A stretch of DNA of 41,183 bases from Eledone cirrhosa (Eukaryota), in assembly GCA_964016885.1 (NCBI GenBank), contig CAXHJY010001354.1:1-41183 (forward strand), given 5' to 3'. The translations under genes were made by a program, and so were the position numbers. Shown piece after piece: positions 2,593-36,704 of this stretch (its first letter is position 1; each line of letters starts with the position of its first letter). The notes beneath the pieces are model-generated. The model ran no database searches. It saw nothing but the letters and a program-made list of their open reading frames with translations, and was not told where the DNA came from.

Positions 2593-2754
2593 AGTTAAAA
2601 GAATAGAGGTGTAACACACAAGTTATTATATATTGGTAAACGGAATAGAAAATGCTGACAAATTGTTCACAGTTGAAAAATGGTTTAATTAGGAATAAAA
2701 GAGTATTAGTGATTGTATGGGTTAGTATTCAGTTGTGGTTTAAAGTTTTTAAGT

Positions 2755-2791
2755 TTTTACCGGTTGCGCATTTCTAAATGCTTTTCAAAAA
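2755..2791 (-). ncRNA. Minimal type I hammerhead-like motif (U3-A8 variant, A13 changed to C)
   Basis: Minus strand reads UUU-UUGAAAA-GCAUU(UAGA)AAUGC-GCAA-C-CG-GUA-AAA. The core has GCAA instead of GAAA, so probably inactive. Confidence 0.6.
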
Positions 2792-2865
2792 TAATTTTGA
2801 GATAGAGTGTCCTTGCTGTTTGCTCTGATCAGAGCAAACAGCACGGACACTCTATCTCAAAATTA

Positions 2866-2902
2866 TTTTGAAAAGCATTTAGAAATGCGCAACCCGGTAA
2901 AA
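2866..2902 (+). ncRNA. Mirror copy of the hammerhead-like motif in the right arm
   Basis: UU-UUGAAAA-GCAUU(UAGA)AAUGC-GCAA-C-CCG-GUA-AA; same A13C change plus one extra C in stem III. Confidence 0.5.
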
Positions 2903-3024
2903 ACTTAAAAACTTTAAACCACAACTGAATACTAACCCATACAATCACTAATACTCTTTTATTCCTAATTAAACCATTTTTCAACTGTGAACAATTTGTC
3001 AGCATTTTCTATTCCGTTTACCAA

Positions 3025-3068
3025 TATATATGTATATATATATATATGTATGTATGTATGTATATATA

Positions 3069-15815: not shown

Positions 15816-16149
15816 TATTATGGTAAGAGAGAAACGCTGGCTATATGTCTCTGTATTACTACAGATGTAACATATTATGGTAAGAGAGAAAAGGTGGCTG
15901 TATACAGCCACCTTTTCTCTCTTACTATAATATGTTACATCTGTAGCAATACAGACATACAGCCAGCTTTTCTCTCTTACCATAATATGTTACATCTGTA
16001 GTAATACAGACATACAGCCAGCTTTTCTCTCTTACCATAATATGTTACATCTGTAGTAATACAGACATACAGCCAGCTTTTCTCTCTTACCATAATATGT
16101 TACATCTGTAGTAATACAGACATACAGCCAGCTTATCTCTCTTACCATA
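15816..16149. repeat. 55-bp tandem array (~4.5 copies) joined at a spacerless palindrome to ~1.6 inverted copies
   Basis: agcca anchor at 15906, 15961, 16016, 16071, 16126; symmetry axis GTA|TAC at 15902/15903. Confidence 0.93.
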
Positions 16150-16358
16150 AATTCATCCATTTTAGACTCGCGGAGACAAAAGTTTCCAATACATTTGTTA
16201 TATAGTAAATTATTCGTATGATGTTAGAAATTCATTTTGTGTGTGTGTACACACACACACACGCACACATGCACACGCACACGCACACGCACACATACAC
16301 ACACAAAATCGGCTGAGTTTAAATCAACCAGCTTTCTCTAAATGAATATATATGTGTG

Positions 16359-21125: not shown

Positions 21126-22521
21126 CTAGCAGTGGTACCCGGCGTTGCACGAGATAAGGTATTTTGGAACGCGGGCCGCCAACAGACCTAATCGTGGAAA
21201 AACTGCATGCCTGGTCAATATGTAAAGAAAATAAACCGAATACTCTGATGGCTGGATAATCTTTAAGATTTTCCTCGATGAAGCAGGAAAAATCCAAGTT
21301 TTCACCTAAGGGATCAAGAAAATAAATTTTTTTTTATGTGCATAATATGCCTCCAAAAAGCCCTAAAAAGCTGAAAAAATGAAGTTTTTCACCTAATGCA
21401 GGCCCTAGGCCATAAAAATGTTGGATTTTCTTTGCTCACGGTATGAAGAAGAGACTGACTAATACATAGACCGATTTCCTTGAAAGTGTAACTGACATAA
21501 CGCCCCAAAAACCCCTAAAAAGCTTAAAAAAACGCAGTAATGCGGGCGCTAAGAAATCAAAAAGTTGAATTTTTGATGTGCAAAACCACTCCATGAAACA
21601 TAAGTAATACACATGTAAAGTTTGAAAAAAATAGGTTAGGTACTTCTCGAGTTTTAGGGATTCAAACTCTCTCTCTCACACACACTGACATCCCCAGGGA
21701 AGTGACATAATGCAGACATACAGACAGATATTATAAGGGCGCGACGTTATATGTATGTATCTATCTGAAAAGAGAAAGACTAAGAATTATAGAGAGAGAT
21801 CGCCTAATGCGGTCCCTAGGGCATTGAAAATTAGAATTTGTTTTTGTTCAGAACACTCCCTGAAACATAAGTATTACATGTGTAAAGTTTGAAAACAGTC
21901 GGTTGGGTGCTTCTCTAGTTTTAGAGATTCAAACTCACACACACACACACAGACAGACATCCTCAGTTTTATATATATAGACTAGCAGAAAACCAACTTT
22001 CAGGGCGGTTTTCTGCTAGTCTATATATCTAAAACAGAGAATGTCTGTCTGTCTATCAGCTCACTAAAACTTGAGAACCATCCAACCGATTGTTTTCAAA
22101 CTTTAGACATGTAATACTTATGGTCCTGTGAGTGTTTTGAGCAAAGATTATTTCAAATTTTCAATGCCCTAGGGACCGCATTAGGCGATTTAGCGTTCTC
22201 TCTATATAATTCTTAGTCTTTCTTTTTAGATAGATACATAGATATAACGTTGCGCCCTTATAATATCTGTCTGTCTGTCTGCATTACGTCATTATAACGC
22301 GCTCAGCGCGATTCCCTCGGCCTCAGTGACCAAAGTCAGTGGAGAGGGGAAGGTAATGTTTCTGTAGCACGTGTTTTAGCGTCTATTCACTCTCTCTCTC
22401 TCCCTCCCGCTATCCCCCTCTCGTAATCTGTCTCTTTCTTTCACTCTCACTCTCTCTCTACGCACGTGTTCCACTGTCGGACAGACAGACAGAGAAATTG
22501 CTGGTTATATATATAAGTAGA
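21126..22521 (-). mobile_element. Composite non-autonomous Helitron-like element
   Basis: Minus strand A|TCtacttatatatataacc (22521) ... ccgggtaccactgCTAG|T (21126). Imperfect GC-rich subterminal hairpin, no TSD, internal ~150-bp modules repeated directly and inverted. Confidence 0.7.
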
Positions 22522-34458: not shown

Positions 34459-34528
<70 letters not shown>

Positions 34529-34596
34529 AAAAAGGGATGAAATCGAAAATGCAACTGAAGTCTTATTTTTTTAAAAATATATATATTTATTTGGTT

Positions 34597-34634
34597 CCTT
34601 TACCGGTTTCGCAGTTCTTTTGCTTTTCAAAAGG
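34597..34634 (-). ncRNA. Minimal type I hammerhead ribozyme, left-arm copy
   Basis: CCUU-UUGAAAA-GCA(AAAGAAC)UGC-GAAA-C-CG-GUA-AAGG; stem II shortened by one pair. Confidence 0.7.
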
Positions 34635-34751
34635 TGAGTTGAGATGGAGCTCGAAAAACCTGGTTTGCGAGCCAGTTCTTCCATATAAAACAAGTAACAT
34701 TTAGAGACCAACCAGATGTGAGAAAAACCACAGACCCTCCATCTCAACTCA

Positions 34752-34789
34752 CCTTTTGAAAAGCAGAAGAACTGCGAAACCGGTAAAGG
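34752..34789 (+). ncRNA. Minimal type I hammerhead ribozyme with compensatory U3-A8 core; predicted cleavage after 34785
   Basis: CCUU-UUGAAAA-GCAG(AAGAA)CUGC-GAAA-C-CG-GUA-AAGG: 4-bp stem I, 4-bp stem II closed by G-C, palindromic ACCGGU stem III, GUA triplet. Confidence 0.8.
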
Positions 34790-34918
34790 AACCAAATAAA
34801 TATATATATTTTTAAAAAATAAGACTTCAGTTGCATTTTCGATTTCATCCCTTTTTCTTTATACTTCCACTCGTGTAGGACACCTCGGTTATTTTTCATT
34901 TTGTAAAAAAAACCTCAC

Positions 34919-36627
<1,709 letters not shown>

Positions 36628-36704
36628 CATTTATAGATGTAAATATGTATGTATGTATTTATCTATCTATTAATTTACCTACCTGTTCCTACCTAGCTAG
36701 CAAC

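Follow-up and report, generated by a model that had tools for sequence, protein, structure and literature searches.

The window (the entire 41-kb contig of 41,183 nucleotides that was analysed, from the microsatellite-rich, 3.0-Gb genome of Eledone cirrhosa) contains hammerhead ribozyme motifs on both strands, which we attribute with good confidence to a Penelope-like element (PLE) of high copy number that was inserted, truncated at its 5' end, into a (TA)n microsatellite. The occurrence of the motif on both strands most likely results from two cDNAs that were primed on opposite target strands and joined head to head. While the original prediction had assumed one element encoding hammerheads on both strands, the layout corresponds to the usual inverted, 5'-truncated copy of a Penelope-like integration. 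The window copy comprises no ORF but only the truncated end of the element, and its features are listed in Table 1.

The sequence from 34522 to 34649 aligns over 128 columns with the reverse complement of 34737-34863, with 1 substitution and 1 gap, and the spacer between these foldback arms amounts to 87 nt (34650-34736). An assembly artefact was ruled out, since two differences distinguish the arms and the same layout is found again on the large contigs. The rest of the window is rich in microsatellites, and this is the only insertion belonging to the family of the 34752-34789 hammerhead.

Table 1. Features of the foldback insertion and its target (window coordinates)
Feature	Position	Strand	Remarks
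(TA)n microsatellite, left flank of insertion target	34460..34525	.	TA x33
Inverted 5'-truncated pLTR copy without tail (copy of 34737-34863)	34522..34649	-	
Minus-strand U3-A8 minimal hammerhead	34597..34634	-	U3 34630, A17 34601; stem II weakened to 3 bp
Head-to-head junction, 6-nt palindrome, 3-nt microhomology	34647..34652	.	single occurrence in genome
Sense 5'-truncated pLTR copy with tail	34650..34931	+	98% identity to both L046 pLTRs
TATA-like box, putative promoter element	34684..34690	+	72 nt upstream of U3
CAGAT motif, family-wide arm stop point	34713..34719	+	13/40 arms start here; putative RNA 5' end/transcription start
Plus-strand U3-A8 minimal type I hammerhead	34752..34789	+	6,009 exact genome copies
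Inner end point of copies, TA-rich, target-matching	34858..34863	+	17/40 arms end; putative first RT start
Optional ~67-nt tail ending in TA run	34864..34931	+	23/40 arms end; putative second RT start
(TA)n-rich microsatellite, right flank of insertion target	34925..36670	.	

Core and stems of the hammerhead motifs

A type I descriptor accepting any Watson-Crick 3-8 pair matched exactly twice in the window, once per arm, compared to a mean of 0.1 and a maximum of 1 match in 100 block-shuffled windows. On both strands the core N3-U4-G5-A6-N7-N8-A9 / G12-A13-A14 / A15.1-U16.1-H17 is complete with a Watson-Crick 3-8 pair, and G10.1-C11.1 is present. With U3 at 34756 and A17 at 34785 on the plus strand, cleavage is predicted at 34785/34786, which bears out the claim of a U3-A8 hammerhead with all core positions on both strands. 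The further claim of three stems holds for stems I and II of the plus strand (4 bp each, with a 5-nt loop on stem II), and it does not hold for stem III, which is a 6-nt palindrome (34779-34784) that can pair completely only between two molecules and forms no stem in the monomer. In the minus-strand motif, stem I comprises 4 bp, and stem II only 3 bp after a G-to-A change.

For the palindrome, a 6-bp duplex of -8.3 kcal/mol was predicted. The double-hammerhead fold showed -21.1 kcal/mol compared to 2 x -7.5 kcal/mol for the monomers, and the best cofold (-22.5 kcal/mol) was a different fold. For the isolated plus motif, stems I and II were predicted with probabilities of about 0.5 and 0.92, and for the isolated minus motif with about 0.06-0.1. 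No hammerhead family appeared among the 150 listed of 241 Rfam matches in the window, the listed ones being microRNA models on microsatellites and hairpins, which is in line with the expectation that standard searches miss a U3-A8 motif. A twin with the canonical core was not found, as the C3-G8 pattern gave 2 unrelated-looking matches compared to 140 for the reversed control, and the PDB sequence search returned 0 matches.

Conservation of the motif

Exact copies of the 38-nt hammerhead number 6,009 in the genome and matches to a looser form 14,182; reversed controls gave 0 matches. Relatives were searched with the core forced and other bases demanded at stem II position 3, resulting in 20 matches. 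Fifteen of these were aligned together with both window copies and L051, after removing one duplicate and four window-family copies with mutations. Paired cells amounted to 79.7% compared to 68.4% after shuffling (0/500) and 18-35% after sliding; pairs with two-sided change numbered 5 compared to 3.9 (126/500, not significant). These values represent three families with few independent events, in which the search pattern fixed the core and two stem II pairs but left stem I free. The two older families showed different yet paired stems, including the unconstrained stem I. The covariation of the stems across families supports a genuine dimer-type U3-A8 minimal hammerhead under selection.

The two older U3-A8 families (L083-L102) carry C17 or U17 and compensatory stem changes. 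RT/EN remains were found beside 1 of 8 fetched loci of family B, just upstream, and beside 0 of 7 of family C; the PLE ORF remains of one of the two families are located in L087/L104. A TATA box at the same place was not found in families B and C.

Identity of the element

With the region 34700-34920, 803 candidate matches were obtained in the genome, of which the 40 scored were 99-100% identical, and longer matching stretches correspond to an element of ~4 kb. Direct copies with the order pLTR-ORF-pLTR exist; in L046, for example, the same repeat is located directly before and after the ORFs, as is characteristic of a pLTR. In such full copies the tail region (equivalent to 34864-34931) continues into ORF1 (context of L046). 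The 775-aa ORF upstream of the same pLTR sequence in full-length relatives comprises an RT followed by a C-terminal GIY-YIG domain. The RT domain matched Pfam RVT_1 with an E-value of 1.3e-6 and 28.7 bits, just below the cut-off of 29.6, and the GIY-YIG domain lay above its cut-off (E 8.9e-6). The ORF contains GLKF (GxKF), DKG and YLDD motifs, a CxxC within the GIY-YIG domain followed by two His (CCHH), and a CX4CxxC linker (of the CX2-5CxxC type) ahead of the endonuclease, and the copies are flanked by (TA)n. Direct pLTRs with hammerhead, an inverted truncated copy and a one-sided tail are all found as in EN+ PLEs.

With one ORF for RT and GIY-YIG between pLTRs, the family is, judged by its sequence, an endonuclease-bearing PLE, and the linker motif and (TA)n target place it in the Neptune/Nematis type without separating these two clades. 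The Hydra clade (DKT, CxCX5C linker, no CCHH, <3 kb) and the Naiad clade (N-terminal GIY-YIG, no canonical hammerhead) were considered and rejected, because their characteristics do not agree with the family. No diverged families were among the 150 protein-search matches listed, all of which were 97-100% identical.

Upstream of the RT frame lies ORF1 (400 aa, L045:3724-4923), which gave no Pfam match. The two frames overlap at a U UUU UUA-type site (~4857 in L045) that is kept in 9 of 10 copies and which we take to be a -1 slippery site, so that a -1 ribosomal frameshift is probable.

End points of the copies and origin of the foldback

Among the first 100 exact hammerhead matches, 26 minus/plus pairs within 8 kb were found with spacings of 76-4,203 nt (155 nt for the window pair). 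For a survey without hammerhead bias, 30 loci were picked by the tail-side motif, yielding 40 arms. While the inner ends of the copies vary, the outer ends are fixed at the equivalents of 34863 (17/40) and of about 34930-34931 (23/40), typically adjoining (TA)n. All 15 head-to-head pairs combined one tailed with one untailed arm; both hammerheads were kept in 8 pairs, and one or both were lost in 7.

The starts of the arms showed an accumulation at 34713-34719 (13/40, p about 1e-10 against a flat local null), about 30 nt past the TATA-like box and ~43 nt upstream of the core. This observation can be explained by the 5' end of the RNA, i.e. the likely transcription start, at this point, and it implies that most cDNAs would run through the uncut hammerhead. 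The common stop point also accounts for a cluster of short spacings at 107-113 nt (12 of 26 pairs), the junction sequences of which differ. TATA-like box and CAGAT motif are located at about equal distance from the hammerhead in two families, and truncated arms pile up there.

Based on these end points, it is assumed that the element protein would nick both strands of the (TA)n target and that RT would have two internal, TA-rich start sites on the RNA, located 77 and ~145 nt 3' of the cut site. Both cDNAs would usually pass the uncut hammerhead, often reaching the RNA 5' end near 34713, and would be joined head to head by microhomology. Hammerhead cutting is likely to be dispensable for the insertion, and in full-length tandem copies the hammerhead would probably cut only as a dimer or with the help of protein.

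The strongest competitor of two separately primed cDNAs is the derivation of the inverted arm from a single cDNA by fold-back self-priming, or from an antisense template, as in the model proposed for head-to-head PLE repeats with palindromic junctions (Arkhipova et al. 2013, PMC3846280). The element and the status of the foldback as a by-product would be the same. Junctions are indeed often palindromic or microhomologous, and in L177/178, L196/197 and L200 the arms share extra junction sequence, as would be expected for the copying of one strand from the other. However, in all 15 pairs each arm possesses its own fixed outer end beside (TA)n, as expected from two priming events, and in the anole system the purified protein cleaves both strands and extends them from two RT starts (PMC11167929). 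Self-priming is therefore considered unlikely for this foldback.

A foldback copied whole as a MITE-like non-autonomous unit, or kept as a source of dsRNA for silencing, would agree with the thousands of short foldbacks, some with recurring junction sequences, and with the very high stability predicted for the hairpin RNA. Against this, the junction of the window gave a single genome match, itself, when up to 1 mismatch was allowed, copies that share the common stop point have differing junctions, and the microsatellite-rich contig stretch holds no other part of the PLE family. We regard this explanation as highly improbable and retain the joining of two cDNAs.

Folding of the foldback transcript

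The original prediction had further proposed a built-in folding switch, in which the antisense arm is transcribed first on either strand and could silence the ribozyme. In an equilibrium model without proteins, the silencing was reproduced: for the full foldback, stems I and II showed probabilities of 0.000, and the same was obtained for every transcription prefix long enough to contain the motif, the hairpin being zipped before the motif is complete. To force the ribozyme fold would cost 68.6 kcal/mol on the plus and 65.7 kcal/mol on the minus strand. Since the hairpin is more stable by ~66-69 kcal/mol, the second state is out of reach, and since a single transcript holds only one sense motif, the dimer cannot form in cis. 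According to this prediction, the ribozyme of the window copy stays locked in the hairpin permanently.

The geometry, with each strand carrying one hammerhead preceded by its antisense, would suit a cis switch under selection that turns the hammerhead on and off via antisense pairing, and such a switch might be seen in the short-spacing cluster. Yet the latter reflects a shared stop point with differing junction sequences, and spacings as a whole range over 76-4,203 nt. Besides the energy gap, the capture of the motif while emerging and the missing cis dimer, the unique junction of the window, the hammerheads lost in 7 of 15 pairs and the stem II break in the minus-strand copy argue against it. 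Neither two accessible folds nor a conserved arrangement were found, so that the idea of a switch was abandoned as scarcely credible.

Possible traces of cleavage in genomic copies

In a first count, 82 copies started exactly at 34786 compared to 51 and 50 at control positions, and about half of the 82 follow TAT. A matched control with TA-joined starts (first 100 of 138) showed 39, 29 and 25 at 34787, 34786 and 34784-85 (p 0.27). The matched control removed the 1.6-fold excess suggested by the first count, and a truncation hot-spot at the cut site is not supported.

Foreign or distal sequence was captured in 5 of 45 insertions at 34786 compared to 1 of 40 control loci, a difference (p about 0.2, computed with 44) that is affected by an uneven choice of loci: the former were the first 30 plus 19 non-TAT of the 82, and the controls (20 of 51 and 20 of 50) mostly avoided the commonest microhomology classes. 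In a few insertions, foreign RNA is joined exactly at 34786, so that cleavage of some templates may occur; like the first count, this weighs against the proposed insertion model.

Between the arms of L196/197, both of which begin at 34786, lie 129 nt of 28S rRNA (Rfam LSU_rRNA_eukarya, E 1.6e-24). The fragment is located at L196:1522-1650 (G000:C3 ~212,893,880-212,894,010), and part of it is common to both arms; its join comprises a 3-nt microhomology and is also compatible with a plain template jump. Other foreign or distal element sequences are joined at the equivalent of 34786 in L177/L178, L213, L199 and L200.

A sister family with C13

A second head-to-head foldback was observed at ~2640-3025 of the window, with cores near 2757-2792 (-) and 2865-2903 (+). 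It belongs to a sister PLE family (L259-L273) of 6,456 copies, which kept U3-A8 and showed C at position 13 in 98 of the first 100 listed. Its stem I consists of 3 bp, three U-A pairs. The sister family is autonomous, as L262 carries an intact frame of 784 aa with 56% identity over 771 aa, and the ORF1 products of the two families are 43-46% identical. In its short foldbacks, the junction lies around the same CAGAT motif, 44 nt upstream of U3, one tailed arm is again combined with one untailed arm, and a TATA-like motif lies at a similar distance from the hammerhead in this family D.

Since A13 is part of the consensus hammerhead core (PMC3088659), the C13 motif is likely weak or dead, and the spread of the sister family fits the notion that cutting is not needed for spread. 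In the literature covered, neither a pLTR hammerhead with C13 nor arms that stop at the transcription start were found to be described, although the supplements of PMC4209133 and PMC8557442 could contain either.

A further, rather doubtful possibility is that the pLTR hammerhead serves mainly as a clasp for RNA dimers, whereby the palindromic stem III would pair two template RNAs, a dimeric RT would make both arms and cutting would be optional. This would explain how the sister family could spread to 6,456 copies with C13 and still keep stem II and the palindrome. The rare joins of 28S rRNA or distal element sequence at 34786 would in this case document an occasional in vivo cleavage by a minimal PLE hammerhead.

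Comparison with known systems

U3-A8 core and opposite-strand pairs are already published features of PLEs, and the finding as originally posed is therefore of little weight. In the Cercyon PLE pLTRs of Schistosoma mansoni, about 1,300 hits of U3-A8 minimal hammerheads were described, with dual opposite-strand motifs ~100-700 bp apart; the one motif assayed showed no cleavage as monomer and low cleavage as dimer (Cervera and de la Pena 2014, PMC4209133). As far as this source describes them, these share with the Eledone motif the minimal type I form, U3-A8, a 4-bp stem I, G10.1-C11.1, a palindromic stem III region and the location in the pLTR. In contrast to Cercyon, stem II comprises 4 bp instead of 7-8, there is no extra base between 9 and 10.1, the 4-nt palindromic loop 3 resembles that of fly, rotifer and shrimp variants, and the family is very homogeneous with its 6,009 identical hammerheads. 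Natural compensatory 3-8 swaps are also part of a survey spanning all domains of life, in which in vitro activity is stated for U3-A8 hammerheads (Perreault et al. 2011, PMC3088659).

For EN+ PLEs, an inverted truncated copy, a tail, a (TA)n bias, the linker motif and an optional frameshifted ORF1 were described (Craig et al. 2021, PMC8557442). The window insertion resembles those of the Neptune/Nematis type in its 5'-truncation, the adjoining inverted head-to-head copy and the palindromic junction (PMC8557442, PMC3846280), as well as in the tail at one end, the (TA)n target, the CX2-5CxxC linker before a C-terminal GIY-YIG and the optional frameshifted ORF1. The tail of ~67 nt differs from the published 30-40 bp, which is a point against the proposed insertion model.

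The Poseidon element PAc of Anolis uses two internal RT starts and extends both strands, with protein-assisted hammerhead cleavage and insertion without cleavage (Frangieh et al. 2024, PMC11167929). Two internal RT starts defining the tail, putative in the Eledone family, and the AT-rich target are common to both systems. The extension of both target strands, uncut RNA as main template and a dispensable hammerhead, reported in vitro for PAc, would apply here as judged from the copies. Unlike the Eledone family, whose hammerhead lies upstream of ORF1, PAc belongs to the Penelope/Poseidon clade and has a C3-G8 core overlapping the start codon. A second point against the model is that both ends lie here on target-matching TA runs, whereas RT of the anole element starts at a site without homology to the target.

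The family lends itself to studying the function of pLTR hammerheads: two young sister families with more than 6,000 copies each have different bases at core position 13, a transcription start and two RT starts are suggested by their truncated copies, and a few chimeras may record real cleavage.

Two further hairpins were observed in the window. At 15859-16150, the right half of a near-perfect 87-nt hairpin passes into a tandem repeat with a 55-nt unit (4.5 copies, 97% match), and a hairpin of ~86 nt lies between simple repeats at 21958-22043.
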